Below, piece after piece: positions 569 through 40,159 of a stretch of 40,159 nt of DNA. Under the pieces are notes generated by a model. That model was not told the origin of the DNA, made no database searches, and saw nothing but the letters and a program-made list of their open reading frames with translations. A program made the position numbers and the translations under genes. The DNA comes from a virus. Each line of letters begins with the position of its first letter. Position 1 is the stretch's first letter. Location: IMG/VR virus record IMGVR_UViG_3300028916_000007, one strand, 5' to 3'.

Positions 569-1446
569 GCATGCTGGGTGCATTCATAGACGATCTGGTC
601 TTGCGCAGGCAAGCAAAGTCTACGATCGCCGCCAGCCGAACCCGGATCAGGCAGTACCTGGAATGGTGTGCTGCCCAGAACATCGACCCGAAAGCAGTGG
701 ACCATGACAACTTCCTGGCATACCTGCGACATCTCCAGGGCCTGGGCCACAAGACAACCACATTGCAGCGCGAGTTCGTGACGCTCGTATCTTTCTATGA
801 ATTCCTGGACCTGGCGTCCGCTGGCGATCTGAAAAAGATTCGAAAAAAGTACCTCCGGGTCTACAAGCCGGATGGTGAAAAGCGCCAGATAATCAGCATT
901 CCACAGGCCGCTGAAATGGTAGCCGCGACGTGCAGCACCCGTGATCAGGCGATATTGCAGGTGCTCTTCAAAACTGGTATCCGGCGCGGCGAGCTTACGA
1001 CGATCGACGTATCTGATGTAGATATGGATGCCATGAGCATCAGGCTGAAGCCTACCGGAAAAAGGAGCAATCGAACGGTCTATTTCGATCGAGAAGCTCA
1101 AGCCGCTTTGCGCCGGTGGCTCGCGGTGCGGCAGTCCATCGGCTCTACACTCTTCACCACCACGACTGGCGAGCGCCTGGGCGGATTCGGTCTGACGATG
1201 CTAGTAGAGAAGGCAGCCGAACGAGTGGGGCTGCATGAAGCGAAAGGCCCTCTTGAGAGGAGGTTCGGCCCACATTGTTGCCGCCACTGGTTCACCACCC
1301 ACCTTCTCCGGGCAGGCATGAGGCGCGAGTACGTGCAGTGGCTCCGGGGTGACTCGATCCGGGAGGCGGTGGATATCTATTTTCACATTGATCCCGAGGA
1401 CGTTCGCCGGGCCTACCTGGCGCATATCCCGCGCCTAGGCATCTGA
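553..1446 (+). CDS. int: Tyrosine recombinase / integrase, XerC/D-like
   Basis: 297 aa with an N-terminal SAM-like core-binding region. Catalytic motifs are GIRRGEL (Arg I), HCCRHWFTTHLL (H-x-x-R box) and AVDIYFH (Tyr). Confidence 0.85.
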   Translation: MEVAMSMLGAFIDDLVLRRQAKSTIAASRTRIRQYLEWCAAQNIDPKAVDHDNFLAYLRHLQGLGHKTTTLQREFVTLVSFYEFLDLASAGDLKKIRKKYLRVYKPDGEKRQIISIPQAAEMVAATCSTRDQAILQVLFKTGIRRGELTTIDVSDVDMDAMSIRLKPTGKRSNRTVYFDREAQAALRRWLAVRQSIGSTLFTTTTGERLGGFGLTMLVEKAAERVGLHEAKGPLERRFGPHCCRHWFTTHLLRAGMRREYVQWLRGDSIREAVDIYFHIDPEDVRRAYLAHIPRLGI

Positions 1447-7561: not shown

Positions 7562-9261
7562 AACTCCGCAGATATCGCTATATATGCCGCCGTGTCGTTC
7601 TCAGCCGCGAACTGGTAGTTCCGCCAATCCGCAAGCGCATCCGTCATGGTGGATATCAGGAGCGTGACATATTTCCCTGCAGTATATCCCTCCAACGAGA
7701 TGGCATTGCATGTGTATATCGTTGTTCCATCATAAAGGCAAAAAGTACCGCTCACATCTATCGATATTGCAGCACAGCGCATTTCAGGATGGAAAACCAT
7801 GATCTGTGCGTTTCCGTCCGCGCTTTTAATTCCGGTACCTAATCGGTGATAGGTCTTGCCCGCCGCGCCATCCTTCCAGTAGAAATACGTGCAATGAGCC
7901 AACTCTTGCTTGTAGTCGCGCGGGAGAAATGGGAGGCACACGGCACCGGCATTAAGCTGCACATCTGAAATATATAGCAAATCATCGACCACTGCATCGG
8001 TATCATCTACCCAGATGAAAACCGCTAGATTCGCCATGCTGGCTGTATCGATGCTGATGTTTTCGATTTTGTGTATTGTCCAGGTATCGGCCACGAGTGC
8101 CATGTTTGCTGGTACGTTCTCCGCCGTCCAGTTTGCCGCCAACGTGGGGTTCGCACCTTCAGCACCCCATGATGCAACTACGTCGCTGGTGACAACATCT
8201 GCAGTAGACGACCAAGACAGCACTGCCACCCGGATATTCTCGATGACCTTCCCCGTCACTGTCCGGGCCTTGAATTGCAGGCTGGCTGTCTTCCCTGCGT
8301 ATCGAATAGAATCCTTACTTTCGATGATTTGCAGAATTCCAAATTTCTTGTTTTGTGTCTCGACTTCGAACTTAGCGGACGCGGCGCCGCCTGTTGGTAC
8401 GACTGATGCATCCTGGCTGACATCAACGATATCATTTCCATCAGAAAGCAGTATCCAGCGATCTATTAGATACGTATCGTCTGAATTGGCTGGCGTAGTT
8501 GCTGAGGTGAACACCGTTGCCCTTTGAGATATCTGGAAAGAGCCGTTTACTAATGCCTGGCGATATACGCCGTCCGTCATCAGATCGGCCCAGGAAAGCC
8601 CCGCGGCCTGGGCTATATCTGCTATGAGAGTCTGCCCATTGGTGCCGACTCCGAGCCTTGCCGGGGTGCTGGCGGCGGTCGCTGCCCACATATCCCCCTT
8701 CGTGGTGAGGTCGGCTTTGAGCGGCATTGCAAGGATTGTTTGGGCCTCTGATAAGGTTTTCTTGACAAATGCCCCTGATTCAGAGGCTACAAGGAAATCA
8801 TTGGCCGCCGTGGCCAATGAGTGTTTCAGGAAGGCCGTGTCATGCAGGCCATCCAGGAGATCCACATTCAGGTTGGCGACTTTCACGGCGCTCGTGATTG
8901 TCATTGGGGCAGCACCGCCATCGGCCAGATCCAGATTCAGAGACTGGGCTCGTATCTCGTAGGCACCGAAATCCACATTGCCGCCCACCGCCGTAACTGG
9001 CCAGACTTGCCGCCACACTGCGCCCCCAGTGGATGCATCCACGCACTCCCAAATGGCCGTCGTAGTGTACCATCTGCTGCCGGTTGCATAGCCTTCGCTA
9101 TCATCGTTGTCTGCATCCGGATCTAGCGCCCCGGCATTCCAATTGCTTTTTGCTAGATAGGCATCTATGATATCGGCATTCGTATTGAAATATGAAATCA
9201 GATTGGCGCGGGTAGAGACTCCCGCGACAAGTTTCTCCAGTGCTATTCGTGTAGTCGTCAT
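7558..9261 (-). CDS. Tail fibre / receptor-binding-like protein
   Basis: 567 aa, immediately downstream of the tape measure. The N-terminal motif DDSEGYATGSRWYTTTAIWECVDASTGGAVW and LNVDLLDGLHDTAF are typical of phage fibre proteins. Confidence 0.5.
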   Translation of the reverse strand: MTTTRIALEKLVAGVSTRANLISYFNTNADIIDAYLAKSNWNAGALDPDADNDDSEGYATGSRWYTTTAIWECVDASTGGAVWRQVWPVTAVGGNVDFGAYEIRAQSLNLDLADGGAAPMTITSAVKVANLNVDLLDGLHDTAFLKHSLATAANDFLVASESGAFVKKTLSEAQTILAMPLKADLTTKGDMWAATAASTPARLGVGTNGQTLIADIAQAAGLSWADLMTDGVYRQALVNGSFQISQRATVFTSATTPANSDDTYLIDRWILLSDGNDIVDVSQDASVVPTGGAASAKFEVETQNKKFGILQIIESKDSIRYAGKTASLQFKARTVTGKVIENIRVAVLSWSSTADVVTSDVVASWGAEGANPTLAANWTAENVPANMALVADTWTIHKIENISIDTASMANLAVFIWVDDTDAVVDDLLYISDVQLNAGAVCLPFLPRDYKQELAHCTYFYWKDGAAGKTYHRLGTGIKSADGNAQIMVFHPEMRCAAISIDVSGTFCLYDGTTIYTCNAISLEGYTAGKYVTLLISTMTDALADWRNYQFAAENDTAAYIAISAEL

Positions 9262-12200
9262 CTTACCGGCACTGCTCCATTCAGTTTCAGTTGTTTCACT
9301 ACTCGATCCATTAGGGCATTAGTGACTTCCTTCCCATCCAGATACCAGCGGTGCTCTGTGTGATCTTCTATGACGATTGGCCGTGATCCTGCGCTACCCA
9401 ATCCGGCATCGGCGAGCGACAGGAACATTCGCGTGAGCTTGGCCGGAAGAATCAGCTCCGGCCCGGCCTCGCCTGCTATCACTTTCTGCGGTCCGTCGTC
9501 TATCAGTGCCCCACGAGCGGCGAAAATCCAGGGCAACTGATAGCCTCCGCCTCCACCGCCTCCACCAATGTAGCGATCATCCAAAGGCATGATCGAATCC
9601 CGAACGGCCCGATTGTAGTCAGGGCATCCGCCCCCCAATGGGCATGGGCCCGTAGTGGTCTGTCTGTATCCATTAGTTGACCAATCCCCGGTTGGCGCTA
9701 GCCAATCGTCATCGCCGCCGAAATTCCAATCCATGTACCCGCCGCCTCCGCCGCCACCGCCATATCCGCTATTGATGCTGGCATTGATGTTCACAGATAC
9801 ATTTATCTTGGCCAGTTCCGTTGCAATTTCAGTGCACGCCTCTTGTATCTGTGTCTGAGCTTCGGATAGATCTGTGAGCATCTGGTCCCAGGTTTCGGCC
9901 CACTTTGTAGCCCAGGCGGTGAGTGCGCCTTCTGCATTGAGAATCATCTGGTTTATCGCGTCAACCGTGCTCGTTCCGGCGTCCGTCATGGCGGATGTTA
10001 GTCCGGTTTTGACCTCATCTACATAGCCCGATATGCTCGGCCACATCTCTGAGAAGGCGGACTTCACACCTGTCAGTATCTCCTGGAAGGAAGTGATTGA
10101 AGTATTGCGGACATCGATGATGGCTTCCCAAGCGCTGTCGCGAAAAGTCGTAACCTCGGCAGTCAGCACTGTATTGATCTGCTTCCAATAGGTCGCGCCC
10201 TCGCTTTTGATTATGCCCCAGGATATCCTGAAGAAATCTTTCAGACTGTTTATGACTCGCTGCACCTGCTTGCTCATGCTGGCCAGGCCCGTGATGCTGA
10301 AATAAGCGGCCATCGCGTCAGGATCTACAGCGGCAGCAGTGCCACCGGTTGCCGTGCCCTCGGCGAAGCCCCTGACCCCATAGGCTCGCAAGGCTGCATA
10401 GAGCAGATCCCACCGCTTGGTTTTGGTGGGGATGACAAATTCGGGATTGGCTGGACCATCCTCACCAATGACGGCCAGCTCCGGCCCGCTGGTCACCGTT
10501 CCGCTGGCGTATAGGTGGCCGAACGGATTCTCTGTGAATAGTTTGGAAGCGGCTGAGCTTACGGCGCTGGCGGCGCTCCGAAGCGATCCCGCGCCCGTGC
10601 TCAGCGCGCTACCTGCATCCGATCCGCCCGACCTGATTGCGCTACCGGCGTTGTAGCTTTTTGTGAGGATGTCGGATGCCCCTAGGCTCAGCTTCGAGGC
10701 AGCGTTCCCGGCACCGTTCTGGATGGCAGAGCCTGCGTATGTGCCCTTGAGCTGAAAATCACTCGCAGCGGCATTAATCTTAGCGGCCAGAGCGGCTCCG
10801 GCACCGCCCGCGCTGGTCTGGATGGCTGAGCCTGCATACTGTATCTTGCTCTGCAGGCCACTGATAGCGGCGGATACCGCGCCGGAAAAGCTTGATCCGG
10901 CCACCTGCACGCGATCGTACAGGATTCCGCCAGCTTCGGCGAATCTCTGCTGAGCCACCTGGCCGATGATGGCTATTTCTCTGCCCGCGCTATCCAGGCC
11001 GATCCTGACGCTTCCCGCCCCTATCTCAGAGCCTATCTTGATGGCGTTGGCAGCTTCTTTTGATCCGCCGATGAGGGTACGATATAGCTCCTGCGCTGCT
11101 GATTTTTCGGTCGACGCGGCATCCTTCGCGGCTTCAGTTGTGGTGGCCGCTGCTTCTTCCGCAGCTTCCGTTTCGATCTCAGCTTCCTCCTCGGCAGCAG
11201 CGATCTCTATCTCTGCCGCTTCTTCTGCGGCGGTCTTGTGGGCTGCATCGTATTCGGCCTGGCCTTTGGCGAACTCTGCCATGATTGGCGCAAGGTCTTC
11301 GGGTCGTATGTATCCGTCTGGAGCGGACTCAGACAACAATTTTTTAGTACTTTCGAAGTTTGCTCCGGTCAATCCCATTTGGTATGCCCAATCTTTCGCA
11401 GATACATCGGGCACAACAGTTTTTATTTTTGGATCTTCCCACGGCTTGAGTTTATACTCGCCGTTCATCCAATAGCCTTTCATTTGGCCGCCGCCTGGAC
11501 CAACCGAACCCGATATGGATTTTATCTTTTCGGTGATGTCCTCGCCGGCGACTGTGGTCACAACGGTTACCGATCTGGTTTCACCATCTTCGGGCAGTGA
11601 ACTCCCGCCGAGCCAGTCCACCGTAGCGGCTATTGTGGTATCAAAGTCCGATGCTTCCCAAATGCCCTCTGCATCTTTTCGCCACTGGGTGGCCTGCTCG
11701 ATGATGCTATCCCCGGCCCCTTCCCATGCAGAGTTCATGGCTCCGCCGATGATCTCCAGGATGGCTGCGCCTATTGTGCCCTTTCCAGCAGTCAGAACGG
11801 TATTGGCGAAGCCTGTCACGAAATCGTAGGCCGCTTTGAGTGCCGTCTTCCCGAAGTCTATTGCAGAGTGGAATAGCGCCGAAAAATTGCTGCCTATTGA
11901 GCTGCCGTTGCTCTTCCAGTAGTCGGCGATCTTGTCATAGATCCATTTTCCAAGATCTACGACCCCCTTCACAACTGAATGAGCGAAGCTCTCGCCGAGC
12001 TTCTTCGGACCGTCCTCTGCTATCCAGCTATCCCATCCAGTCTTGATTTTCTCGTAGATTGACTTGGCATAGTCAGCAACTTTTCCGAGCCCGGCCTTGA
12101 TCTTGTCTCCAATCTCTTTTCCAGCCGTGGCAAAATCCACTGAGCTGATACCGGATTTGAATTCCGTCCAAAATTCTTTCAGCTTCGCTAGACCGGCCTT

Positions 12201-14729
12201 GATCTTCTCGGATATGGAGCTTCCGGCGCCGGACCAATCAGCCGAAGTCAGGTAGTCCCAGACCTTCTGCCCGATGTCAGCCAGGGCGGTGATCGCATCT
12301 CGAATAGCCTGCCCGATCTTGAAGCCGACCGTGCCCCAATCGATGCTATCAAAATATCCTAAGATGGTGCTGCCCACATCGGAGAGCTTCGCTATCGCAG
12401 CGTCCCAGGCAGATACCAGGGAGTCCCAGACTCCGCCCCAATCCACATTCTTGAAATCTTCGTACAGACCTTTGGCAATGTCGGACCCGAACGCGAAAGC
12501 AGATTTCAGAGCTTCCATCGCAGCCGTGCCCGCCGCGGCGGCATAGCCTTTCAGGGCTTCCCATCCGGTCCCAATGGCCTTGGCTATATCAGACCCAACA
12601 CCAGACCAGTTGATATTCTTGATATAGTCTACCGAGCTTGAAAACGCGGCCTTGAGTCGGGTAACTACCGCACTGAAATCACCCTTCTTGGCGGCCTCCC
12701 AACAATCGGATACTACCGATTTCAGGCCCTTCAGCGCGTTCGAACCAATTTTTCCCAGCGTGGTGAACTTCGATGGATCGGCGGCTAATCCAATCGCCGC
12801 CAGGCCTGCCCCGATGAGGAGCAGAGGAGCTGCCAGGGCGGCGGCCATACCAGCAACGGAAGCAACGACGCCCGTCACCATCGACGCGAATCCGGCCAAC
12901 GTCCCGGCGACCATAGCAGCTACAGACGCGAGTGCACCCGCTGCCATTTTCGCATATCCCGCCAGAGTGGCAGTTGTCATCGTGCTGAGTCGCAGGGCGG
13001 CATTCATGGCCATAGAACCGAATGCAGCCGCCACACTGGCAGCCATCGATAACGCTGAAGCCACTGCGCCCAAAGCCATAGCGGCAAACTTCCCTATGGT
13101 GCTGGTTGCCATCATGCCCATGTTGGCGGCAGCGGTAGCAGCCATCGTCGCATATCCTGCCAAGGTGATCTCGACTGTCAAGGCCATGCTAGCCACGGCA
13201 GCAAGCTTCATCGAAAGCCAGGAAGCAATAGCCTGCGCCTTCATGGATGCCCAGGAAGATACTGACGCTGCCACCATCGAGGCAAAGCCAGATACGTGAG
13301 CGGCTACCATAGCAGCGATAGAAGCTGCTGTACCCGCCACCATTGCCGCCGCAGAGGCCACGACACCAGCTGCCATCGAGGCAGCGACGGGGATCAGGGA
13401 TGCTAAGCCCGCCGCAAATACCGCTATTCCTGCCCCTGTAGCAAGCCCTGCTACAGCGGATTTGATTTTTTCCACCGTAATCCCTATCTGAGCGCCGGCT
13501 GCTGAGAAATCGCCTGCTGATAGAGCTTCGATGAAAGAGCGGATGGCAGGTGCGCCCTCTGCTGAAAACCATTCGAAAGCGCTCTTCAGAGTCGGAGCGA
13601 GCTTGCCGCCGATCAGGTAGGCCAGTGAGGAGGCCGCACCCATGGCGGCGTCTAGAGAGCCGCCCAATTTATCAAGCATGAACTTGGCCATTGTCTCTGC
13701 GGCGCCGCCGCAGTTGAGCAGACCCTGCCGAAACTTCTCGATCTGATCGGTATTGGATGCCAGACTGTAGAGCAATCCGCCTTCGGCACCAAATATTTTC
13801 GTGAATGCGGAAAGTCCTTGCCCAGAAGCATCTGCCTGACTTTCCATCTTTGCCAGGATGTCCACAAAATCATTGCTCCTGGGATCTACATCTGCCATGG
13901 ATAGGCCGATAGCATCCAGGCCATCGCTGAGCGATTGGGTGGGCGTGATCAGGGTATTGATCGCCCCCCTCAGAGCGGTTCCTGCCTTTTCGCCCTTGAT
14001 GTTTGACTGACTAAATGTTTCAAGGCAGGCGGTCAAGGTCTCAAAACCGACATTTGCGACACTGGCGACTGGCCCGGCCTGTTGCATGGCATAATTCAGG
14101 TCGCCCATCCCGGCGGCCGAAGCACCACATGCAGTAGTGTAGACATCAGCGATATGGCCGAGATCCTCAACTCCCTTGCCGAAGGTATTCATGGCGGCGA
14201 GGGCCATGTCCGCGGAATCCCCCAGATCATAGTTCGTCGCGGTTGCTAGAGCCAACACGGGCGCGAGATCTTCCGCGCTTGCCGTGGCCACATCGAAGCC
14301 TTGAGCTGCGAGATTGGCGCAAGCCTGGGCTATTTGGGTAGGATCGAATGCGTTTGTGTTGAGCTGGCCCAACTCATCAGCCAGGCCCATCACGTGCTCC
14401 TTCACGCCGGTGAAAGCCTCCTCCATCGACTTGCCACTGGCTTGGGCGATGGCCGAGAGATCCATCTTGGAAGCGGCATCGGCGGCGGCAGATTCGATGT
14501 CCATATAGGTCTTGACACCCACAGTGGCCACGCCAACAAGAGCCGCACCGGCAGCGACCGCTCCGGTAGTCAGAGCCGAGCCGATAGCAGAGCCTACGCT
14601 CTTGGCCTTGCCTTCCATAGCATCCACTGCACTGGAAAACTTGGATTTGGCGCCAGACAACCCAGAGTCTAGCTTAGAGTCATCCAGGCCCAGTGTGGCG
14701 TATGCGCTCCCGACTTCCGCTGATGGCAT
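9258..14729 (-). CDS. Tail tape measure protein
   Basis: 1823 aa and the largest ORF. It has a long Ala/Met/Ser-rich hydrophobic repeat region, repeated W/D-containing ~40-aa units, two GPE-x-VIGE-GPE-xxIP motifs and Gly8 runs near the C-terminus. It is preceded by a chaperone gene pair. Confidence 0.85.
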   Translation of the reverse strand: MPSAEVGSAYATLGLDDSKLDSGLSGAKSKFSSAVDAMEGKAKSVGSAIGSALTTGAVAAGAALVGVATVGVKTYMDIESAAADAASKMDLSAIAQASGKSMEEAFTGVKEHVMGLADELGQLNTNAFDPTQIAQACANLAAQGFDVATASAEDLAPVLALATATNYDLGDSADMALAAMNTFGKGVEDLGHIADVYTTACGASAAGMGDLNYAMQQAGPVASVANVGFETLTACLETFSQSNIKGEKAGTALRGAINTLITPTQSLSDGLDAIGLSMADVDPRSNDFVDILAKMESQADASGQGLSAFTKIFGAEGGLLYSLASNTDQIEKFRQGLLNCGGAAETMAKFMLDKLGGSLDAAMGAASSLAYLIGGKLAPTLKSAFEWFSAEGAPAIRSFIEALSAGDFSAAGAQIGITVEKIKSAVAGLATGAGIAVFAAGLASLIPVAASMAAGVVASAAAMVAGTAASIAAMVAAHVSGFASMVAASVSSWASMKAQAIASWLSMKLAAVASMALTVEITLAGYATMAATAAANMGMMATSTIGKFAAMALGAVASALSMAASVAAAFGSMAMNAALRLSTMTTATLAGYAKMAAGALASVAAMVAGTLAGFASMVTGVVASVAGMAAALAAPLLLIGAGLAAIGLAADPSKFTTLGKIGSNALKGLKSVVSDCWEAAKKGDFSAVVTRLKAAFSSSVDYIKNINWSGVGSDIAKAIGTGWEALKGYAAAAGTAAMEALKSAFAFGSDIAKGLYEDFKNVDWGGVWDSLVSAWDAAIAKLSDVGSTILGYFDSIDWGTVGFKIGQAIRDAITALADIGQKVWDYLTSADWSGAGSSISEKIKAGLAKLKEFWTEFKSGISSVDFATAGKEIGDKIKAGLGKVADYAKSIYEKIKTGWDSWIAEDGPKKLGESFAHSVVKGVVDLGKWIYDKIADYWKSNGSSIGSNFSALFHSAIDFGKTALKAAYDFVTGFANTVLTAGKGTIGAAILEIIGGAMNSAWEGAGDSIIEQATQWRKDAEGIWEASDFDTTIAATVDWLGGSSLPEDGETRSVTVVTTVAGEDITEKIKSISGSVGPGGGQMKGYWMNGEYKLKPWEDPKIKTVVPDVSAKDWAYQMGLTGANFESTKKLLSESAPDGYIRPEDLAPIMAEFAKGQAEYDAAHKTAAEEAAEIEIAAAEEEAEIETEAAEEAAATTTEAAKDAASTEKSAAQELYRTLIGGSKEAANAIKIGSEIGAGSVRIGLDSAGREIAIIGQVAQQRFAEAGGILYDRVQVAGSSFSGAVSAAISGLQSKIQYAGSAIQTSAGGAGAALAAKINAAASDFQLKGTYAGSAIQNGAGNAASKLSLGASDILTKSYNAGSAIRSGGSDAGSALSTGAGSLRSAASAVSSAASKLFTENPFGHLYASGTVTSGPELAVIGEDGPANPEFVIPTKTKRWDLLYAALRAYGVRGFAEGTATGGTAAAVDPDAMAAYFSITGLASMSKQVQRVINSLKDFFRISWGIIKSEGATYWKQINTVLTAEVTTFRDSAWEAIIDVRNTSITSFQEILTGVKSAFSEMWPSISGYVDEVKTGLTSAMTDAGTSTVDAINQMILNAEGALTAWATKWAETWDQMLTDLSEAQTQIQEACTEIATELAKINVSVNINASINSGYGGGGGGGGYMDWNFGGDDDWLAPTGDWSTNGYRQTTTGPCPLGGGCPDYNRAVRDSIMPLDDRYIGGGGGGGGYQLPWIFAARGALIDDGPQKVIAGEAGPELILPAKLTRMFLSLADAGLGSAGSRPIVIEDHTEHRWYLDGKEVTNALMDRVVKQLKLNGAVPVR

Positions 14730-14787
14730 TATTTCTCCTAAAATATATTTCTAATAAATCTATGATCGTTAACAATACAAATAAAAT

Positions 14788-15045
14788 TCAAAAGTGGCCA
14801 AGGGCTTTCGCTGTATTGATCGCCTTGGCCGTTTTGGAATCTACTTTCTGTTTTTTTGTGACCGGATCGGTCTCTGGATAGAAGCGTTCGAATTGTGGCG
14901 CATGGGCCGGATCATGCCAGATCCAGCCTAGCTGATTGACCAGGCGGTAATCTCTGACGGCCTGGTCTCGCCTGGCATCGTTGTAGGCTTCTATCTTCCA
15001 GTTGATTTCCACTGGGGTGGATCGAAGGAAGGCCTCCGCATCCAT
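14788..15045 (-). CDS. Tail assembly chaperone, gpT-like position
   Basis: 85-aa ORF lying in the -1 frame relative to 15057-15614 and directly upstream of the tape measure. Confidence 0.4.
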   Translation of the reverse strand: MDAEAFLRSTPVEINWKIEAYNDARRDQAVRDYRLVNQLGWIWHDPAHAPQFERFYPETDPVTKKQKVDSKTAKAINTAKALGHF

Positions 15046-20921: not shown

Positions 20922-22025
20922 CTACTGTGGCTCCGCGACCGCGCGGCAACCGACAGCCGAACCCACATCCGACCGCCGATTAGACGCACCACGCGCCCGC
21001 GAACCGCAATACGCGGCATTACTCCAAACGCCGCCCGCAATAACCGCAGCTTGTGCCTGGTATGTCCCTTGGCCATAATGAGATCCTCTGGTGCCAGAAA
21101 TATTTTCGTATCCGAACGCGATCGCCGCTGCATAATCCGCGCCTGCTATGTAGCTCTGCTGATTCTGAAGCCAAGTCCACCAGACACCGGACATGTCTTC
21201 CAAGCCGATATTGCTAATCATGCGACGGCCCGTGGTTGATATATGCCCACCCACGGTCGTTGGGTTTGTCGATCCTGCGATATTGACTTCTTCTTCTTGA
21301 CCTGCGTGTAGCTGAGCAAACTCCCAGTCGTCCATCATCCGGGCACCGATGTTCTTCAGGTCATCGGCGAAATCATAGAAATTCCTGGAAACGGACGCGA
21401 CTGCTCCGAATACGGATGCGATAGATGCCCCAGTCCCACTGAGGAGGTAGATCGATGCCCAGAGGGGTGCATAATTCAGGCTGTCGAAGTCGGTAGGGCC
21501 GCCCCACGCAAAGCCTGGAAGGAAGCGCCCATAAGGCCGGTGCAGGAGATCCTGGATGGAGCGGGGTAGGACGTCCCCGGCCAGGTATCCGGTCAGGGAG
21601 TGCCCGCTGATCGTGCCCACTGCCACGCATTCGCAATGAAACATTCCAATTTTCCGGCTGGTGCTGGTCGTGTAGCCAGCCGGAGCAGTGGCGTTGGCAG
21701 ATACCACGAAATCCGGCACCCGTCCGCTTGTTGGCTCGCAGGCGTAAAGTCTGAAGTCCTGCCCGGCCCGATTAGCAGCGATCCTGTAGTCGGTAGCTAC
21801 GGAGTCCCATGCAGACTCATCTGAGAGGTCTAGCTCAACCTCCTCCGGATTGTAATATCCCAGACCATTGATCGAGAGCCGCATCTCGGGAATTATGAGG
21901 AGATACCGATCTGCCCCGGTAGTGCCGCCTGGATATGGCGGCGTCTCGCGCTCGTATGCGCCTAGCCCCTGGGCAGCATTCCGATGCACCAGGGCAGGCG
22001 TAAGGAATTGCCCAGGGATTTTCAT
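20922..22025 (-). CDS. DGR target (variable) protein with C-type-lectin / FGE-sulfatase-like C-terminal domain
   Basis: 367 aa. The C-terminal signature GGVW....YCGSRARG.......VGCRAV matches DGR variable proteins (compare GGSW..N.CRSA.R.......GFR..). The VR lies in its last codons. Confidence 0.8.
   Translation of the reverse strand: MKIPGQFLTPALVHRNAAQGLGAYERETPPYPGGTTGADRYLLIIPEMRLSINGLGYYNPEEVELDLSDESAWDSVATDYRIAANRAGQDFRLYACEPTSGRVPDFVVSANATAPAGYTTSTSRKIGMFHCECVAVGTISGHSLTGYLAGDVLPRSIQDLLHRPYGRFLPGFAWGGPTDFDSLNYAPLWASIYLLSGTGASIASVFGAVASVSRNFYDFADDLKNIGARMMDDWEFAQLHAGQEEEVNIAGSTNPTTVGGHISTTGRRMISNIGLEDMSGVWWTWLQNQQSYIAGADYAAAIAFGYENISGTRGSHYGQGTYQAQAAVIAGGVWSNAAYCGSRARGASNRRSDVGSAVGCRAVAEPQ
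20932..21047 (-). repeat. DGR variable repeat (VR) forming the C-terminal ~38 codons of the target gene
   Basis: Same alignment as the TR. It encodes AGGVWSNAAYCGSRARGASNRRSDVGSAVGCRAVAE. The GC-rich 3' end (GTTGCCGCGCGGTCGCGGAG on the coding strand) is a candidate IMH. Confidence 0.85.
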
Positions 22026-28608: not shown

Positions 28609-29220
28609 CTAAGTCCTCTTGCCCTTCAAACGAGACTGCCCCCAACCACAATCTACCGCGCCCGCGTTCTGTTCTGCCCACCAGGCCGCCATAGCCACCG
28701 ATAGCACCAGATCATCATGGTCTGCCTCTCGCCAGGCCGAATAAGAATCGTGTGCGGTGACCGGATCGATTTTGACCTTGAAATTCAGAAGCTCGTTCTG
28801 CAAAACCGATGCCAACGGCAGCTTCTTAGAGATCTTTAGCCTGCCGCCCTGAAAGAGCACTTGTAGGCTGCCCACCAGGTCGCGCTTGGGAACCCGCCAG
28901 GTGTCGCCCTCATGAGATGCCTTGTCACCACCATGAATTAGCACGCCCACCGGATCGAGCCCCGCCTGCCTGAAGAGATCGACCACCGGCGCGCCCACCC
29001 CCGTCTGATCGACCACAAGGGCAGCCTGGCCCGCCAGGGCAGGAGATCTCATGATCTCTGTGACTTTGGACACGATCTGAGGATAGGGCACGCCCCGGAC
29101 GCGCTCCAGATGCCTGACCTGATAGGAAGACTCGCTGCCTGGGGCCACCTGATCAAGCACAGAAAGGGCTGTATAGTCGCTGCTCTGGCCGAGATCGAGA
29201 CCTACGTAGAATTTTGACAT
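28609..29220 (-). CDS. terL: Terminase large subunit, C-terminal RNase H-like nuclease domain (separate ORF)
   Basis: 203 aa. It starts MSKFYVGLDLGQSSDYTAL (first catalytic Asp motif) and ends with READHDDLVLSVAMAAWW. Its ATG shares one nt with the TGA of the ATPase ORF. Confidence 0.8.
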   Translation of the reverse strand: MSKFYVGLDLGQSSDYTALSVLDQVAPGSESSYQVRHLERVRGVPYPQIVSKVTEIMRSPALAGQAALVVDQTGVGAPVVDLFRQAGLDPVGVLIHGGDKASHEGDTWRVPKRDLVGSLQVLFQGGRLKISKKLPLASVLQNELLNFKVKIDPVTAHDSYSAWREADHDDLVLSVAMAAWWAEQNAGAVDCGWGQSRLKGKRT

Positions 29221-30002
29221 CAGAACAACGGCTCCACATCATCACTAATTGCTTCTGCTATCATATCGTAGCTGAAGACACTATCTATATTTTCAGTGAA
29301 GGCACAATGATATTCCTGCTCGAACCAGGGGTTTGTTCGCTTCTCTTCTGCTATGAACTCTTTCGTTATGCGTGGGCACATTTCCGCCGGGATTTCATGT
29401 GCTTCCCACAAATCCCGCTGCTCGCTCCAGATATTCCAGAAGTGCCCCCGCTTGCCAAAAGGAGTGCTCATCAGGATATGCCTGCCATTGGACACGGCGA
29501 GCATGGGCCTGACCGTATTGTAGAGCACATCCAAAACCCGGCTCGCTTCGTCTTCCAGCAGCAGAGTCACTGCCGAGAAGGATCTTGCGCTCTTCTCGGA
29601 CCCCGGACGAGCTATGAAGCGATTGCCATTCGCGAATCGGACTGCAAGTTTTGTGTCGGTGCTCAGATAGTCGGAAGGTAGTTCAACCGCGCCCCGGAAC
29701 TCATCGAACTTGAGCATCAACTCAGAGCTCTGGTCTTGAGTGGGAGCGATCACAAGCCCGAAAGAAGGCCTGCGATAGATGGACTCATGAAGCCCCAGGG
29801 CGGCGCATGTTGTACTTTTTCCGCTCTGACGCGAGCAATTGAGGATGATCTTCCTCGAGCGGCTGCGGAGGAGATCGGCCTGCCAGGGATCAGGATGATA
29901 GCCCAGGACTTCCTTGCACCATAAGACAGGATCGGCCCCGTAAACAAGGTCATCGGCCACGGATGGCATTGACAACAGCCGCCTTTGCTTCGGGATACGC
30001 AT
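29220..30002 (-). CDS. terL: Terminase large subunit, N-terminal ATPase domain (separate ORF)
   Basis: 260 aa. Walker A is CSRQSGKSTT and Walker B is VTLLLEDEAS. Confidence 0.85.
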   Translation of the reverse strand: MRIPKQRRLLSMPSVADDLVYGADPVLWCKEVLGYHPDPWQADLLRSRSRKIILNCSRQSGKSTTCAALGLHESIYRRPSFGLVIAPTQDQSSELMLKFDEFRGAVELPSDYLSTDTKLAVRFANGNRFIARPGSEKSARSFSAVTLLLEDEASRVLDVLYNTVRPMLAVSNGRHILMSTPFGKRGHFWNIWSEQRDLWEAHEIPAEMCPRITKEFIAEEKRTNPWFEQEYHCAFTENIDSVFSYDMIAEAISDDVEPLF

Positions 30003-31618: not shown

Positions 31619-31749
31619 TCAGAACCATCCACTTCTCGCAGAAGCCGCCGAATTTCGTATATGCGTTGTGCCGGGGTTCTGTTTGCATCATGACAAAAAT
31701 CATGTATCTGTATCATCAGGGCTTCGGACGACATTGATGCATGAGTCAT
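31615..31749 (-). CDS. 44-aa protein (internal start of track ORF 31615-31857)
   Basis: The ATG at 31749 overlaps the TGA of the nuclease gene (ATGA). Sequence MTHASMSSEALMIQIHDFCHDANRTPAQRIYEIRRLLREVDGSE. Confidence 0.4.
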   Translation of the reverse strand: MTHASMSSEALMIQIHDFCHDANRTPAQRIYEIRRLLREVDGSE

Positions 31750-32522
31750 GCCGTTACCTCCTTCGCTTTCGCTTTGCTCTTTTTTGGCCTGATGATATTT
31801 GTGCACGGTACGAATCGAGCCATCGACATAGCCAACTTTTCGCCGATGCCCGCGCAATCCGTCAGATACATATCGCCTTTTTTCGGCATCAGGCTAATCG
31901 AAAATTTTTCTAAGACTGCTTTTGCCTTTGCCGGTCCGATGCCCTTCCCAGCCAGGATGCACAGCCCGACTGTCTGTCTTTCTCCTTCGGATGGCGCTGG
32001 CGCAAAACCACTCAGGTCGCCGCCTTCCAAGATCTTCCGGACCCTGAGGAGCATCCTCTTCCAGGGATCTGTCTTGAACCGCCAGACCTGGACATTTAGG
32101 GCGATGCAGTTGGCCTCGAAGCCTTCCACCATCCTGTAGTACTCCATCAGCTTATCGAGATCGACCCCATGGCCCGCCGTGGCCCGACTAGCGGCCTTTC
32201 GGATAGCAGCGCCTACGTCATTGTCATCTCCCAACACAACGACTGCAAGAGGCTGCTGTAGTTCCCTGGCGGAGAGGACCTGCTCCCAGAGGTGGCCATT
32301 CAAGATCGATGCCAGGTAGTCGCTGCCCGCGTCCTCGGAGAAGTCCTTGAGCTCGACATGGAAAACGTTCTCGCCGTGATTGAAACGAAGATCAAAAAGC
32401 AAAGCTTCTGATGCTTTCCAGAGGAGAAAGCGATCGTCTGCCTCTACGGCTTGCTCGATCTTCTCGGCCCTCGGCCTGGCCGCTTCGTTGTGGTCGAGAG
32501 AGGCGAGGATGGGAGAGATCAT
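31746..32522 (-). CDS. XPF/ERCC4-family (PD-(D/E)xK) nuclease with two C-terminal helix-hairpin-helix motifs
   Basis: 258 aa. Nuclease core FHVELKDFSEDAGSDYL. HhH motifs GKGIGPAKAKAVLEKF and CAGIGEKLAMSMARF. Confidence 0.55.
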   Translation of the reverse strand: MISPILASLDHNEAARPRAEKIEQAVEADDRFLLWKASEALLFDLRFNHGENVFHVELKDFSEDAGSDYLASILNGHLWEQVLSARELQQPLAVVVLGDDNDVGAAIRKAASRATAGHGVDLDKLMEYYRMVEGFEANCIALNVQVWRFKTDPWKRMLLRVRKILEGGDLSGFAPAPSEGERQTVGLCILAGKGIGPAKAKAVLEKFSISLMPKKGDMYLTDCAGIGEKLAMSMARFVPCTNIIRPKKSKAKAKEVTA

Positions 32523-33404
32523 CTACCCCTCCACTGGAACGAGCGCGCCTGCCTGCTCCATCTCAGCTCTGTCGTACATTCCTCCCAAATTTTGCGGGAA
32601 AGCTTCCCTGAGCGCCTGGACGAGGGCCACTTTCCTGATCATTGTGCCCGGCATCTTCATCCAGTTTTTCTTTCCAGTATTGTACTCAGCCAGGACAACC
32701 TCTGCTTTGGTGGGCACCTTCCGATCCTTTCGATGGACACTCGCCCATCCGCCCAATAGCAGCTCCTCGGATGGCAGATAGAATGTGCCTTCCCGGTGGA
32801 TCAGCTCACCGCCCTCTTTCAGCCGGACTATGATGCCCGCCTCGAAGCCGTCGAATTGTGGATGTGTCTCTGCTTTTTCGGTGAAATACTCTTTTCCGGC
32901 GATGAAAGAGACGTTGCGGTCGCCCTTCTCGTTCTCGAATATCGCGAGATAGACCTGCTTTGTCATCGGGTCCGCGCCCTTTCTCCGGCAGAACTCTGCG
33001 AAGAGGTAAGCCTCTTGCTCCGTCGCCTTGGGATTGATGTAGTTGATGATATCCTGGGGTGTCAGGCCCGCCAGACCTTTGCCGCTTGGTGGGATTTGGC
33101 CAGATCTCTGAGTTGCAGGCACATTAGGACGTTCCGACTTAGCCTCGTTCCTTGGGGCTCTGGCGGGCTCCTGGGGCGTTTCCATGATGATCTCTATGAG
33201 CTTTTCGTGGATGCTCTGCATGAGCGGTGCGTCCGGGGAGGATACCTGCAGCCTGCCTTCCGGGCTGCATGATACCAGCACATCGCCAGGCATCAGAGTT
33301 ATGCCGCCGTTGTCTGATAGGGATTTTGTGTATTCAGGATGCAGCTCACAGAAAGTCTTTACGGCATCAACGACTTCCTGTCTGCGGAGGACCCGGGCGG
33401 CCAT
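32523..33404 (-). CDS. RecT/Bet-family single-strand annealing protein
   Basis: 293 aa. The C-terminal signature is KNWMKMPGTMIRKVALVQALREAFPQNLGGMYDRAEM, with KGADPMTKQVYLA upstream. Confidence 0.75.
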   Translation of the reverse strand: MAARVLRRQEVVDAVKTFCELHPEYTKSLSDNGGITLMPGDVLVSCSPEGRLQVSSPDAPLMQSIHEKLIEIIMETPQEPARAPRNEAKSERPNVPATQRSGQIPPSGKGLAGLTPQDIINYINPKATEQEAYLFAEFCRRKGADPMTKQVYLAIFENEKGDRNVSFIAGKEYFTEKAETHPQFDGFEAGIIVRLKEGGELIHREGTFYLPSEELLLGGWASVHRKDRKVPTKAEVVLAEYNTGKKNWMKMPGTMIRKVALVQALREAFPQNLGGMYDRAEMEQAGALVPVEG

Positions 33405-33838
33405 CAGTTGTCGCCTCCGATCTTGACTTCCATAGTAGCGTCATGCTCTTTCAAGAACTGCTTTATCTCCTGGACTTCGGCGAACTCGTTCAGAGAGCGG
33501 TTTGTCTGCGCTTTCTTGATCGCCTCGGCCACATCCAACGAGCCTTGAGATCTACCTTTCAGGCCCATCGATGCATATTCCTTGATTGTGCCAAGGGCAC
33601 TTTCGCATACAGAGAGCTTCATGGCGCGCTCTTCTGGGGTATCTGCCCAATCCAGGAGATTCTTTTTCAGGGTCTCGAGATTCCCCTCGATCATGCTCAC
33701 GGCCATTCCCAAAGCGTCCACCGGATCTGCTTCGGTTCGGAGCTGGATGATAGCAGACTGTACGAACGTCTTGATATCCTCAGGAGAGGACATGCTCATA
33801 GCCGTGCTCAGCTTCGATAGTGCTTTTTCTTTGCTCAT
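33404..33838 (-). CDS. Hypothetical helical protein
   Basis: 144-aa ORF whose stop shares nt 33404 with the RecT start. Confidence 0.4.
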   Translation of the reverse strand: MSKEKALSKLSTAMSMSSPEDIKTFVQSAIIQLRTEADPVDALGMAVSMIEGNLETLKKNLLDWADTPEERAMKLSVCESALGTIKEYASMGLKGRSQGSLDVAEAIKKAQTNRSLNEFAEVQEIKQFLKEHDATMEVKIGGDN

Positions 33839-33918
33839 TTCTTCTCATCTCCTTCCACTGCTTCAGGTTCTATGTCTACCATCGATTCCTCTACCAGTTT
33901 CTTTCGCGCATCTGACAT
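33835..33918 (-). CDS. Possible 27-aa acidic peptide
   Basis: The ATG at 33918 lies 2 nt after the helicase stop, with GGAGGG 8 nt upstream. Sequence MSDARKKLVEESMVDIEPEAVEGDEKK. Its stop overlaps the next start. Confidence 0.25.
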   Translation of the reverse strand: MSDARKKLVEESMVDIEPEAVEGDEKK

Positions 33919-33920
33919 TT

Positions 33921-36074
33921 TTATTCCCTCCGTTTGATTACATTTTCTAAGCAATTTTGACAATAAATTGAAATTCCCTGCACCCTCTGCCAGCTCGGCG
34001 GGAGAGGCAGTCCGCACAGTTCACAGTCTTCCCAATCCCCGGCTTCGTCTAGATTCCTGCCGTCTGGGGCGAAATGGGACAGATCGCGGGACAGATTTGG
34101 GACAGATGAATCAGTAACATGGGACACATGGACAGATGGGACAGATATTTTCGACTTGTTGTCAATGTAAGAGTATATTTTCTCTAAAATCTGGACAGGG
34201 TATTTTTGCGTTTTATCTGTCCTAGTGTCCCTTGTTATTTGTTTATCTGTCCCTTTATCTGTCCCAATCTGTCCCAAAGAGAAAGTATCTGTCCCATTTA
34301 TAGTATAATTAGATATAATTGTATCAAACGCTTCTTTGTCAAAAAACAATCCATAATATCCTCTCTTCCGTGATCCCTGCTCATAAGTCCGGTCTGCCTT
34401 TCGGCCAAGAGTATTCTTGATGTAGTTGGCCATCGAGCGATCGCTTTCAGGAGCTGCATTTATTACCATGCAATATTTTTCATACTTCTCCCTAATATCT
34501 TCAAATGCAGTAAACACCTTCCAAGTATCTTCTTCTTGGACAGAGTAACAATCACTGAAGAATGAGCTAATACTATGGCTCTGTCTGTCGTATTCCTCCG
34601 TTAGCTTTGCGCCCGTGGTTCTCCGGTGTATGGTTTTGGACTGGACAATATTCCTTGCTCTGAGTACGACTAGGTTTAGCAGTCCGGAAAGCTCAGACTC
34701 AGACGTTATTTTCTGGAGTAGTTGAGGGTCTCGTTTCCTCTCCCATACATGATCGGCATTCGGTTCGTCTACGAATGAAAAACGAAAGTCCAGTTTCACA
34801 AGTCTCCGCTGAAATCCAAATGTATGGTCCCAGAACTGTGGCGGGCTGTTGGTATCGAATATCTGCAAGCACGTCGGCCTGAAGTGTATCCGGTCCCGGT
34901 TTTTCAGGTCAGAGTCTATCATCGTGCCGCCCGATATCATCTTGATCCAGCGACTCTCCATCTTCGTGCCCTGCACCTCGGAGTTTATGAGCGCTCTTTT
35001 TCGCCTTATGGCGCCCCTTATGAACTGATTCGAATTCAGCTCGGACAGCTCGACCTCTGTCACCTGATCTGGCCCGAAGAATGCAGAGATTGCAGACTCC
35101 AACACTGATTTCCCGTTGCTGCCTGGCCCGATCATGGCCACGAAATATTCCCATGTGGCCATTGTGGCCATTGCGACAAAGCAGTCAAGGACCGTCAGGA
35201 TATCGTCTATACTGGACAACGACTCCCACAGAAAATTGATAAATCTTGGGCACCCTGCCTTAGGATCATACTTTACCGGGCTCTTCAAGGAGAGCAGAAA
35301 GTCCGGTGAATGGCTGAAAAACTCGCCGGTCTCCAGGTCGATAACCCCGTTGGCCACACAAAACAGGTTTAATTTTTGGTCAAAGATGTTGGGCACGCAT
35401 AGCGTTCTTGCCCTAATCTTCTTCATGACTTCTTTTGATTGATGAATAGTGTAGAGGTTTCCGCAAAGAGCATCCAGAATGTAGTCTATTGCTTCTTCAC
35501 CGTAGGGCTCATAGATTCCGTTTCTGTAGCACCAGATCGTCTTATCATCGCTCGTGGTTTTCAGATGCAGCGACTTGATACACGCATCTGCCGCCTTCGA
35601 CGGATCAAATGCAGCCTGCTTAGTGCCATCCTTCCCTACTGAAATGCTTGTCACGTCATCGGCAACGAGGGGCTTTGCGCCGCTTCGCCAGGCCCGCGCC
35701 GGCCTGCCACTCCTGGGATAGTCGCATAGCCTCTCCTCGCAATACTTCCTGACATACGAGGCTCGTAGGATGTCGCAACTCAGTCTATCTGCCTGGCCAT
35801 ATACATCTTCGACCAACTGCCCTATCACTTCAGCCGATGGATGGAAGATAAGCCGTGCTGCCCACTCGGTGATAATGCGCTTGGTATCGGTTTTCCCCAC
35901 CGAAGCATCCCGGAAATATGCGACGTAAGCCTGGATTAGCGTGCGTGTCTCGTCAGCATCTGCTGGCCCGGAAGTCTCCCAGGCATCGATCAGGCAGACA
36001 GGCATTTTCTGCTCATCATGGCCTGCCAGCTCAGGCAGGAGGGCAAGCTCGGTCAAGCTTCGCCCCCAGGGCAA
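33921..36074 (-). CDS. Replicative SF3 helicase, D5 / phage-plasmid primase P4-family type, with C-terminal Zn ribbon
   Basis: 717 aa. Walker A is MIGPGSNGKSVLE and Walker B-like is RALINSEVQ. There is a D5_N-like region upstream and CELCG...YCQNC at the C-terminus. No primase catalytic motif recognised in the N-terminal ~130 aa. Confidence 0.8.
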   Translation of the reverse strand: MPWGRSLTELALLPELAGHDEQKMPVCLIDAWETSGPADADETRTLIQAYVAYFRDASVGKTDTKRIITEWAARLIFHPSAEVIGQLVEDVYGQADRLSCDILRASYVRKYCEERLCDYPRSGRPARAWRSGAKPLVADDVTSISVGKDGTKQAAFDPSKAADACIKSLHLKTTSDDKTIWCYRNGIYEPYGEEAIDYILDALCGNLYTIHQSKEVMKKIRARTLCVPNIFDQKLNLFCVANGVIDLETGEFFSHSPDFLLSLKSPVKYDPKAGCPRFINFLWESLSSIDDILTVLDCFVAMATMATWEYFVAMIGPGSNGKSVLESAISAFFGPDQVTEVELSELNSNQFIRGAIRRKRALINSEVQGTKMESRWIKMISGGTMIDSDLKNRDRIHFRPTCLQIFDTNSPPQFWDHTFGFQRRLVKLDFRFSFVDEPNADHVWERKRDPQLLQKITSESELSGLLNLVVLRARNIVQSKTIHRRTTGAKLTEEYDRQSHSISSFFSDCYSVQEEDTWKVFTAFEDIREKYEKYCMVINAAPESDRSMANYIKNTLGRKADRTYEQGSRKRGYYGLFFDKEAFDTIISNYTINGTDTFSLGQIGTDKGTDKQITRDTRTDKTQKYPVQILEKIYSYIDNKSKISVPSVHVSHVTDSSVPNLSRDLSHFAPDGRNLDEAGDWEDCELCGLPLPPSWQRVQGISIYCQNCLENVIKRRE
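34076..34295. promoter_or_regulatory. Putative replication origin: inverted arrays of 9-bp iterons flanking an AT-rich spacer, inside the helicase ORF
   Basis: GGGACAGAT occurs at 34076, 34088, 34099 and 34138, with variants at 34121 (GGGACACAT) and 34129 (TGGACAGAT). ATCTGTCCC occurs at 34245, 34257, 34267 and 34287, with variants at 34215 and 34223. The AT-rich spacer is 34147-34214. Confidence 0.6.
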
Positions 36075-36158
36075 AAGCTAAGTAGAACTAACTCCGATGT
36101 CATTGTGCACCAAACCGCTGCCTATCGGATGTTAGCGCATCCGGTGGGCAATTCTCAC

Positions 36159-36296
36159 TTATTCTCTCTCTTCGATTCCCGCTATTCTGAGAATCCACTC
36201 CTCCCAGGTGAGGCCGGAAGCATCCTTTTTCTTCTTCAGCTTCACGAACTTCTCCTCTGGGAATCGCAGATTCACGGCCTTGATTCCTTCTGCCAT
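36159..36296 (-). CDS. Unannotated 45-aa ribbon-helix-helix (CopG/Arc-like) protein
   Basis: Hand translation gives MAEGIKAVNLRFPEEKFVKLKKKKDASGLTWEEWILRIAGIEERE, a strand-helix-helix pattern. A repeat/palindrome and a TATA-like box lie directly upstream. No SD. Confidence 0.55.
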   Translation of the reverse strand: MAEGIKAVNLRFPEEKFVKLKKKKDASGLTWEEWILRIAGIEERE

Positions 36297-36300
36297 GCTT

Positions 36301-36328
36301 CTTAGATACTATCTTAGATAGTATATTA
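36301..36328 (-). promoter_or_regulatory. Promoter/operator: 12-bp tandem repeat, also a 9-bp-arm palindrome, plus a TATA-like box
   Basis: cttagatactat / cttagatagtat sit in tandem. ATACTATCT-t-AGATAGTAT is an inverted repeat at 36306-36324. TAATATAC on the minus strand lies at -32..-25 from the ATG at 36296. Confidence 0.45.
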
Positions 36329-36413
36329 GCCTTTCCCTTGCTCCTGAAGTCCGGGCACATCCCCGGCTTGCACAGCGCTGGATGAGTCAGGCACCCGGGC
36401 GTCTTGCATTGCC

Positions 36414-36578
36414 TCATGCTTTCACTCCCTTCCGTCGCCCCTTGCCCCTGAGCTTCTTCATTTTCCACGCGCTCGTGCCGTCTGCCCGCTGGAACTGGCA
36501 TTTTTCCTGCTCAGGCGTCACAAAACAGGACCGGGTCCGGCACTGTCGGAACCAGTCACATCCACCGCAGGCTCTCAT
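36414..36578 (-). CDS. Unannotated 54-aa Cys-rich (Zn-binding-like) protein
   Basis: Hand translation gives MRACGGCDWFRQCRTRSCFVTPEQEKCQFQRADGTSAWKMKKLRGKGRRKGVKA. ATGA overlaps at both ends. Confidence 0.45.
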   Translation of the reverse strand: MRACGGCDWFRQCRTRSCFVTPEQEKCQFQRADGTSAWKMKKLRGKGRRKGVKA

Positions 36579-36766
36579 GCTCGCCTCCATGCTCGTAGCG
36601 CATTGGCAACGGTGGATGGTTTCGCGCCATACAGCGCGCCTATGTCATGATTCGTCCACCCTTCGGCAGACAGCCGGGCAACCTCATCGTAGTCCTCTCT
36701 CGGGATGAGTGTCCGGACTTTCCAGCTACTCCGTCCCCTCTGCTTGATTTTGTAGCGGCTGCTCAT
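36575..36766 (-). CDS. Small HTH DNA-binding protein
   Basis: The internal ATG at 36766 is ATGA-coupled to the upstream micro-ORF. Sequence MSSRYKIKQRGRSSWKVRTLIPREDYDEVARLSAEGWTNHDIGALYGAKPSTVANALRAWRRA, in which GWTNHDIGALYGAKPSTVANAL is the HTH. Confidence 0.55.
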   Translation of the reverse strand: MSSRYKIKQRGRSSWKVRTLIPREDYDEVARLSAEGWTNHDIGALYGAKPSTVANALRAWRRA

Positions 36767-39940: not shown

Positions 39941-40123
39941 GTGAAAATAATGAAATGTCCGAAATGTGGATCACATAACACCAAAGGCGGCCCACTTGGG
40001 TGGGTGAAATGGGCAATAGTTGTCATGGGATGTTTTCTGTTCTTTGTACCGGGGCTCATCCTCTATCTGATCTGGAGGCATCCCATGAAAAGCTGTGTCG
40101 AGTGTGGCTTTATGTGGCAATGA
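39941..40123 (+). CDS. Zinc-ribbon membrane protein
   Basis: 60 aa with CPKC...(TM helix WAIVVMGCFLFFVPGLILYLIW)...CVEC. Its 3' end lies within the terminal repeat. Confidence 0.55.
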   Translation: MKIMKCPKCGSHNTKGGPLGWVKWAIVVMGCFLFFVPGLILYLIWRHPMKSCVECGFMWQ

Positions 40124-40159
40124 GATAATACCGTATTTTCCTAACTGCCTGAAGGTGCA
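40083..40159. repeat. Terminal direct repeat, copy 2 (contig self-overlap)
   Basis: Identical to nt 1-77. It cuts through the 3' end of CDS 39941-40123. Confidence 0.95.

Follow-up and report, generated by a model that had tools for sequence, protein, structure and literature searches.

A probable iteron-type replication origin within the initiator-helicase gene of a putative Methanothrix virus

The virus genome IMGVR_UViG_3300028916_000007, analysed here as one stretch of 40,159 nt (the window), carries two opposed arrays of a 9-bp repeat around an AT-rich spacer (positions 34076-34295), embedded in the reading frame of a helicase of superfamily 3 (SF3). Judging from the comparison with related sequences, this segment is a selected cis-acting DNA element overlapping a translated protein linker. 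By analogy with characterised systems, it is probably the iteron-type replication origin of the virus, overlapping the coding sequence of its own initiator-helicase. The design is a known one, with precedents in phage lambda, phage N15 and the staphylococcal pathogenicity islands (SaPIs); what is new here is the archaeal virus lineage. Hardly any replication origins have been mapped in archaeal head-tailed viruses; here, comparative evidence alone places one to ~250 bp, together with a probable reader domain.

Opposed repeat arrays in the helicase reading frame

A preliminary description of this DNA, made from the letters alone, had proposed two arrays of about six repeats each, facing one another across an AT-rich spacer of ~68 bp. 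Both arrays were recovered, comprising eight exact and three one-mismatch copies of the unit GGGACAGAT on the two strands plus one weaker copy reduced to a GTGTCCC core, i.e. five to six copies per side in opposite orientation, and the length and AT-richness of the spacer held as described (genome GC content, 54%; Table 1). All eight exact copies present in the window are confined to 220 nt, a length in which chance would place about 0.002 copies of any given 9-mer, and the seven one-mismatch copies found outside the element correspond to chance level. In a sliding scan of the whole genome, the element reached ten copies of one 8-mer per 250 nt, against maxima of three in the remainder and four in shuffled genomes, and was the sole such k-mer cluster. 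Successive copies are spaced by 12, 11, 22, 8 and 9 nt in the gene-distal array and by 30, 12, 10 and 20 nt in the gene-proximal array, that is, by 8-12 nt or about two to three times that distance. A second AT-rich tract flanks the right array, upstream of the arrays in the sense of the gene. It holds TATA-like runs (TTTATAGTATAATTAGATATAAT), and may possibly act as an auxiliary unwinding element or as a TATA-like internal archaeal promoter.

The surrounding gene was assigned by the preliminary description to the D5/P4-type helicases, in agreement with Pfam matches to D5_N (5e-13) and DUF5906 (1e-8), a match to phrog_864 (8e-48) and a score of 119.8 bits against TIGR01613, the P4-family helicase model (cut-off 108.7). 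The database gene call (P0001) has 711 aa, and its start would fall 18 nt downstream of that of the 717-aa frame. The closest structural and sequence matches are PriRep5 of SaPI5 (7OLA), poxvirus D5/E5 and C962R of African swine fever virus; PriRep5 is the top solved-structure match by sequence (E 7e-13) and the second by fold, with the highest TM-scores (0.64-0.76). The protein comprises, in order, a helical N-terminal domain, D5_N, the SF3 ATPase (DUF5906), a winged helix, the repeat-encoded linker and a zinc ribbon.

Across 34040-34330, the helicase frame is the only one of the six frames that is free of stop codons, in line with the earlier statement that it stays open through the repeats. 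Between the arrays, which are in frame, and the stop codon 150-370 nt further downstream lies a conserved segment that encodes the zinc ribbon. The arrays themselves are translated as GTD, GQI and RTD in the gene-proximal array and, in two codon phases, as SVP/SVH and LSH/LSR/VSH in the gene-distal array; these linker peptides, as well as the CxxC...CxxC motif, are as first described. An AlphaFold2 model built on 61 sequences (predicted local distance difference test score, pLDDT, 85.6) assigns aa 501-578 to the winged helix, after which come a helix (aa 580-591), two stretches predicted to be disordered (595-622 and 645-665) with a short helix between them (627-636), and a confident zinc ribbon (667-717) whose cysteines C684, C687, C705 and C708 are nearly invariant. 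The two disordered stretches coincide with the two arrays and the short helix with the AT-rich spacer: since the gene reads through the putative origin, the arrays take the form of two disordered linker segments and the spacer that of a short helix. The linker would thereby join the winged helix to the C-terminal zinc ribbon.

Table 1 Features of the helicase gene and of the repeat element it contains (window coordinates)
Feature	Coordinates	Strand	Details
Putative initiator-helicase gene	33921..36074	-	717-aa open frame; Pfam, PHROG, TIGR and structure matches
RFX-like winged-helix coding region, proposed repeat reader	34299..34625	-	aa 484-592; H3 545-554, beta-hairpin wing 560-574
Flanking AT-rich tract	34296..34350	.	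20% GC; encodes ..DKEAFDTIISNYTIN; near-identical nucleotides in the four closest relatives
Gene-proximal array	34215..34295	-	GGGACAGAT on - strand at 34287-34295, 34267-34275, 34257-34265, 34245-34253 (reverse complement ATCTGTCCC exact at 34245, 34257, 34267, 34287)
Gene-proximal array, variants	34225-34231; 34215-34223	-	GGGACAC (GTGTCCC core on + strand); AGGACAGAT (read on + strand as ATCTGTCCT, one mismatch to ATCTGTCCC)
AT-rich spacer, proposed DNA unwinding element	34147..34214	.	68 bp, 31% GC; encodes conserved short helix KYPVQILEKIYSYIDN
Gene-distal array	34076..34146	+	GGGACAGAT exact at 34076, 34088, 34099, 34138; one-mismatch variants at 34121 (GGGACACAT) and 34129 (TGGACAGAT)
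C-terminal CxxC...CxxC zinc ribbon coding region	33924..34070	-	aa 669-717; pLDDT 82-95

Concerted change of the repeat unit among relatives

A nucleotide search of phage records with positions 33400-36600 returned nothing, and relatives were therefore found via the protein. We fetched the DNA of eight of them, all from independent metagenomes and with 54-80% protein identity. In all eight, the frame remains open through two opposed arrays at the same positions. The offsets of the gene-proximal copies (0, 20, 30, 42 and 72) are kept in the homologues, and automated measurement of the spacer, reliable in five relatives, gave 66-68 bp in four of them and 56 bp in L015. Given this conserved position in relatives down to 54% identity and the in-frame placement of the segment, we rejected a miniature inverted-repeat transposable element or another insertion as its source.

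Linker and repeats co-vary in this comparison, which the preliminary description had proposed as a check, and no homologue was found that keeps the linker peptide without the repeats. The unit itself varies among the relatives, and does so identically in both arrays of each. Type A, with GGGACAGAT in the gene-proximal and ATCTGTCCC in the gene-distal array, is shared by the window, L012 and L015, and occurs in degenerate form in L009 (AGGACAGA and GTCCCA, respectively). Loci L010 and L016 carry type B (AAGACAGAT/ATCTGTCTT), and L013 and L014 type C (TGGTACCGA/TCGGTACCA). Even a deviation of a single inner copy is mirrored, GGGACAC being changed to GTGACAC on both sides in L010. Repeat type does not track overall protein relatedness: L010 is 80% identical to the window protein and yet of type B, L015 ~58-59% identical and yet of type A.

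At the peptide level, one and the same 9-mer is read in several codon phases, yielding GTD or GQI in one array and SVP or LSH in the other. Changing from type A to type C leaves the encoded residues of both arrays intact (GGG ACA GAT to GGT ACC GAT; TCT GTC CCA to TCG GTA CCA), since in the predominant phases motif positions 3 and 6 fall on wobble sites, while the type B switch alters the peptides (G to K, P to L). In pairs of type A or B sequences, synonymous-codon identity amounted to 0.73-0.85 in aa 575-666 versus 0.40-0.54 in the rest of the gene (p 1e-3 to 7e-11); in three pairs compared with aa 150-560, the values were 0.83 versus 0.42 (p=7e-11), 0.78 versus 0.40, and 0.85 versus 0.54. 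Synonymous identity was not raised in aa 575-666 in A-versus-C pairs. The segments between the repeats vary between relatives, with in-frame indels, which argues that the constraint acts on the repeats and does not reflect a recently shared segment; recent recombination as the cause of the low synonymous divergence was rejected on the same grounds.

These observations bear on one alternative, namely that the repeats are a low-complexity peptide linker generated by slippage and devoid of any function at the DNA level. Slippage easily yields tandem repeats in linkers, and the encoded stretches 595-622 and 645-665 are predicted to be disordered. However, the two arrays are reverse complements of each other, several codon phases are used to read the motif, the unit switches jointly in both arrays, in part by purely synonymous changes, and conservation at synonymous sites far exceeds that in the rest of the gene. 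We thus regard a mere peptide linker as highly improbable; the comparison shows that the conserved unit is a DNA motif, not a peptide.

A DNA motif conserved in opposed copies might also be selected for the structure it forms, be it a DNA cruciform or single-strand hairpin, corresponding to a stem-loop origin like that of plasmid pRN1, or an mRNA hairpin modulating translation of the zinc ribbon. A 251-nt segment folds at -48.5 kcal/mol (z = -8.4 versus shuffles), with arms of 39-46 nt that are 72-82% complementary; two-sided changes are compensatory, the inner 18 nt of L010 form a perfect palindrome, and the group of P0010 and P0011 has a 59-nt imperfect inverted repeat in place of many units. 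A precedent exists in pRN1, which has an SF3 primase-helicase with a winged helix and whose origin is a ~100-nt stem-loop downstream of the gene (PMC4234260). A stem, however, needs no five to six tandem copies of one 9-mer at spacings of 8-12 or ~20-30 bp. Moreover, the spacings of the two sides are not mirrored (12, 11, 22, 8 and 9 versus 20, 10, 12 and 30), so that the best fold is full of internal loops, and the inter-repeat segments vary freely between relatives. Selection for a hairpin therefore appears an unlikely account of the arrays, albeit one that partly overlaps with an iteron origin, as extrusion could help melting.

Beyond the eight close relatives, repeat units occur at the same place with unrelated sequences, both in the distant Methanosarcinales virus vir515 (TCTCAGGTA/TACCTGAGA) and, around an AT-rich spacer, in loci L024-L028 (GGACCATC/GATGGTCC). 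Domain-wise comparison shows which part of the protein the arrays accompany. Between P0010 and the window protein, identity is 84% in the zinc ribbon, 52% in the N-terminal domain and 25% in the winged helix, and the arrays are unrelated; P0006, P0008 and P0009, conversely, have related arrays and a different zinc ribbon. It follows from this mosaic that the arrays travel with the helicase/winged-helix core and not with the zinc ribbon. More generally, the helicase genes are mosaic (P0010 or L002 versus the window), core and terminal domains appearing to have been swapped as separate modules.

The candidate reader and the origin model

The preliminary description had named the helicase or its C-terminal domain as candidates for repeat binding. 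The likely reader is the winged helix (aa 484-592), since the arrays are inherited with it; the zinc ribbon, by the same domain comparison, is not the specificity partner of the repeats. In the model, the winged helix displays the secondary-structure order H-S-H-H-S-wing-S at high pLDDT. A profile of aa 484-594 matched the DNA-binding domains of RFX5 (E 5e-5) and RFX1 (E 2e-4), and marginally (E 0.23) the C-terminal domain of PriRep5 (683-759). Neither the zinc ribbon nor the N-terminal 135 aa yielded a Pfam match, even at E<=10.

From these elements, the following sequence of events can be proposed. The RFX-like winged helix, encoded immediately upstream of the repeats, would bind the 9-bp units. 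Subunits on the opposed arrays would face each other and assemble as hexamers, probably as a head-to-head pair, which, with no dedicated loader and in the manner described for Rep proteins of SaPIs, might then open the 68-bp AT-rich spacer and unwind the DNA outwards. Priming and copying would subsequently fall to factors of the host (Methanothrix) or to other factors of the virus, since the helicase has no recognisable primase domain: none was detected by Pfam in aa 1-135 at E<=10, where the model shows a helical domain, although the longer relatives P0012 and P0019 carry Prim-Pol (PF09250).

The layout merges a SaPI-like geometry with a lambda- or N15-like placement inside the gene. In SaPIs, a C-terminal winged helix binds 6-12 iterons located immediately downstream of rep, whose orientation reverses across an AT-rich centre, and the Rep helicase loads itself (PMC9371898). 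The likeness extends to the SF3 initiator-helicase core (D5_N plus ATPase), with the winged helix C-terminal to the ATPase, and to the opposed iterons, at least two on each side of the AT-rich centre there and five to six here. The SaPI origin differs in lying just past the stop codon and in having units of 5-6 nt, as opposed to 9-nt units that are in frame and followed by a zinc ribbon. The virus described here further differs in its archaeal host, in lacking a recognisable fused or adjacent primase, and in a winged helix that is RFX-like by profile.

The preliminary description had likened the element to the lambda origin. As to placement inside an initiator gene this holds, with lambda and N15 as precedents; the closest analogue, however, is SaPI Rep and its origin. 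In lambda, iterons and an AT-rich tract lie in the middle of gene O and are translated as an inter-domain linker, extra iterons adding residues (PMC7466680). This translated placement inside the initiator gene, found also in the Shiga toxin (Stx) phages, is what the two share. Lambda differs in its 19-bp direct repeats, which have one orientation and an AT-rich tract on one side only, whereas here inverted arrays surround the tract; lambda O, moreover, is not a helicase but recruits DnaB through P, and its protein family is unrelated to the SF3 helicase found here.

In N15, bidirectional replication starts within repA (PMC2847241). N15 RepA and the P4 alpha protein share the P4-family helicase core with the protein described here, and N15 also the internal origin, a comparison made at the level of placement. 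Both differ in having an N-terminal primase domain, which was not found here, and the P4 origin lies outside the alpha gene. The C-terminal winged helix of P4 alpha reportedly binds repeated octamers (Ziegelin 1995; Yeo 2002, cited within PMC4234260). Archaeal chromosomal origins, for their part, have inverted origin recognition box (ORB) elements that flank an AT-rich unwinding element beside the initiator gene; they differ in their AAA+ initiator Orc1/Cdc6, which loads MCM, in their longer sites and in being intergenic. Finally, ORF904 of the Sulfolobus plasmid pRN1 resembles the present system in being an archaeal SF3 helicase with a C-terminal winged helix and an origin on the 3' side of the gene, and differs in its prim-pol domain and in the iteron-free stem-loop, which lies past the stop codon (PMC4234260).

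Arrays of this kind could instead serve another process, as a partition site (centromere), a packaging site, arms for an integrase or excisionase, or operators of a regulator encoded elsewhere. Opposed arrays of short repeats are also known in centromeres and pac/cos regions, N15 repA contains a centromere site as well (PMC2847241), and most genes of the virus have no assigned function. Against this, the arrays consistently adjoin the 3' end of the region coding for the winged helix in relatives whose gene neighbourhoods otherwise differ. A distance of 4-5 kb separates them from the terminase genes and one of ~6.4 kb, across the circular junction, from the integrase; no partition ATPase was detected, and the layout fits the experimentally characterised origin of the nearest solved homologue. 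A role in one of these other processes is hence quite unlikely, and an iteron-type origin read by the winged helix remains our preferred interpretation.

Several points weigh against this interpretation. We infer origin activity from architecture and analogy, and binding of the repeats by the winged helix from sequence comparison; concerted change of inverted arrays would also be expected from selection on a hairpin or cruciform. Loci L020-L023 and L007 (38-39% identical) show no recognisable arrays at this place, and the P0010/P0011 group, with its long imperfect palindrome, has only two tandem units. Few residues follow the repeat type, and these only weakly: ten columns in all, six of them encoded by the repeat element itself. 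One column in the wing separates type B (Q) from types A and C (R); resting on two sequences and being absent from the window protein, it is suggestive and was not used as evidence of specificity. No primase was identified. GC skew, lastly, has no inflection at 34.2 kb, a result confounded by nearly all genes between 3.6 and 39.4 kb lying on one strand: the only turning points of the cumulative skew are ~3 kb and the circular junction, where the plus-strand gene block ends on either side, and since the skew thus follows gene strand, it is uninformative on the origin. The local change of skew sign across the element is that of a G-rich motif facing its C-rich complement.

It is conceivable, if rather doubtful, that the in-frame embedding is itself functional. 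With transcription and translation coupled in the archaeon, the nascent winged helix might meet its own sites while these are still occupied by ribosome and polymerase, leading to cis-preferential loading and tying origin firing to helicase expression, and the dual code might channel the evolution of specificity to positions that are wobble in both arrays, as in the switch from GGGACAGAT to GGTACCGAT. Were this so, SF3 helicases of methanogen viruses would generally share the design of an origin used as a translated linker, and the helicase gene alone would be a minimal replicon for Methanothrix, an organism without genetic tools.

Independently of this, protein code and DNA code overlap in the element and evolve in concert, which makes it a clear example from nature. 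The three putative natural specificity types A, B and C differ by two bases and, with a candidate wing residue, make for testable predictions. Should the helicase gene and the origin within it make up a self-contained replicon, it could serve as a vector seed for Methanothrix and related methanogens.

The virus, its host and neighbouring genes

Positions 1-77 and 40083-40159 of the window form an identical 77-nt terminal direct repeat, and the assembly is therefore complete and circular (or circularly permuted), with a length of 40,082 bp. The genome has the genes of a head-tailed virus (terminase, a Mu-F-like head protein, a tail collar protein, a tyrosine integrase and RecT). Among deposited phage records, the only detectable relatives were two Methanosarcinales viruses. 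Every named relative of the tyrosine integrase (553-1446, plus strand; 47-55% identity) came from metagenome-assembled genomes (MAGs) of Methanothrix or Methanotrichaceae, some of them on contigs of ~150 kb; because of these relatives, the virus is most likely a temperate virus of Methanothrix. Neither a tRNA gene nor an attachment site was identified, and Rfam at gathering thresholds reported nothing in the window.

A Dehalococcoidia host, as a single MAG contig (L033; JBAZEO010000009.1) would have implied, was rejected, the match statistics of this contig being the same as those of an IMG/VR viral contig. L033 and L006 both have 56,669 nt and identical match statistics, and the viral contig, L006, encodes a related helicase (sequences not directly compared); the supposed Dehalococcoidia contig is thus probably a mis-binned virus.

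Elsewhere in the genome, the stretch of lowest GC content (14710-14820; ~18-20% GC) lies at the start of a gene for 1823 aa (9258-14729), has no repeat cluster and is probably a promoter or intergenic region. For the large terminase, the minus strand has two open reading frames (ORFs), one for the ATPase (29220-30002) and one for the nuclease (28609-29220), overlapping in TGATG, which is consistent with either a truly split TerL with translational coupling or a frameshift. A further minus-strand gene (20922-22025) encodes a protein with an 'Mtd second domain', i.e. the major tropism determinant fold. An active diversity-generating retroelement at this gene was considered and is improbable: a Pfam scan covering all but several of the ORFs brought up no reverse-transcriptase ORF, and no pair of template and variable repeats was seen.

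Directly downstream of the helicase, the minus strand encodes a RecT-family annealing protein (32523-33404). The ORFs on either side of it (33404-33838 and 31746-32522) had no family match; that at 31746-32522 may encode an exonuclease partner. This region (31746-33838) suggests recombination-dependent replication in an archaeal virus.

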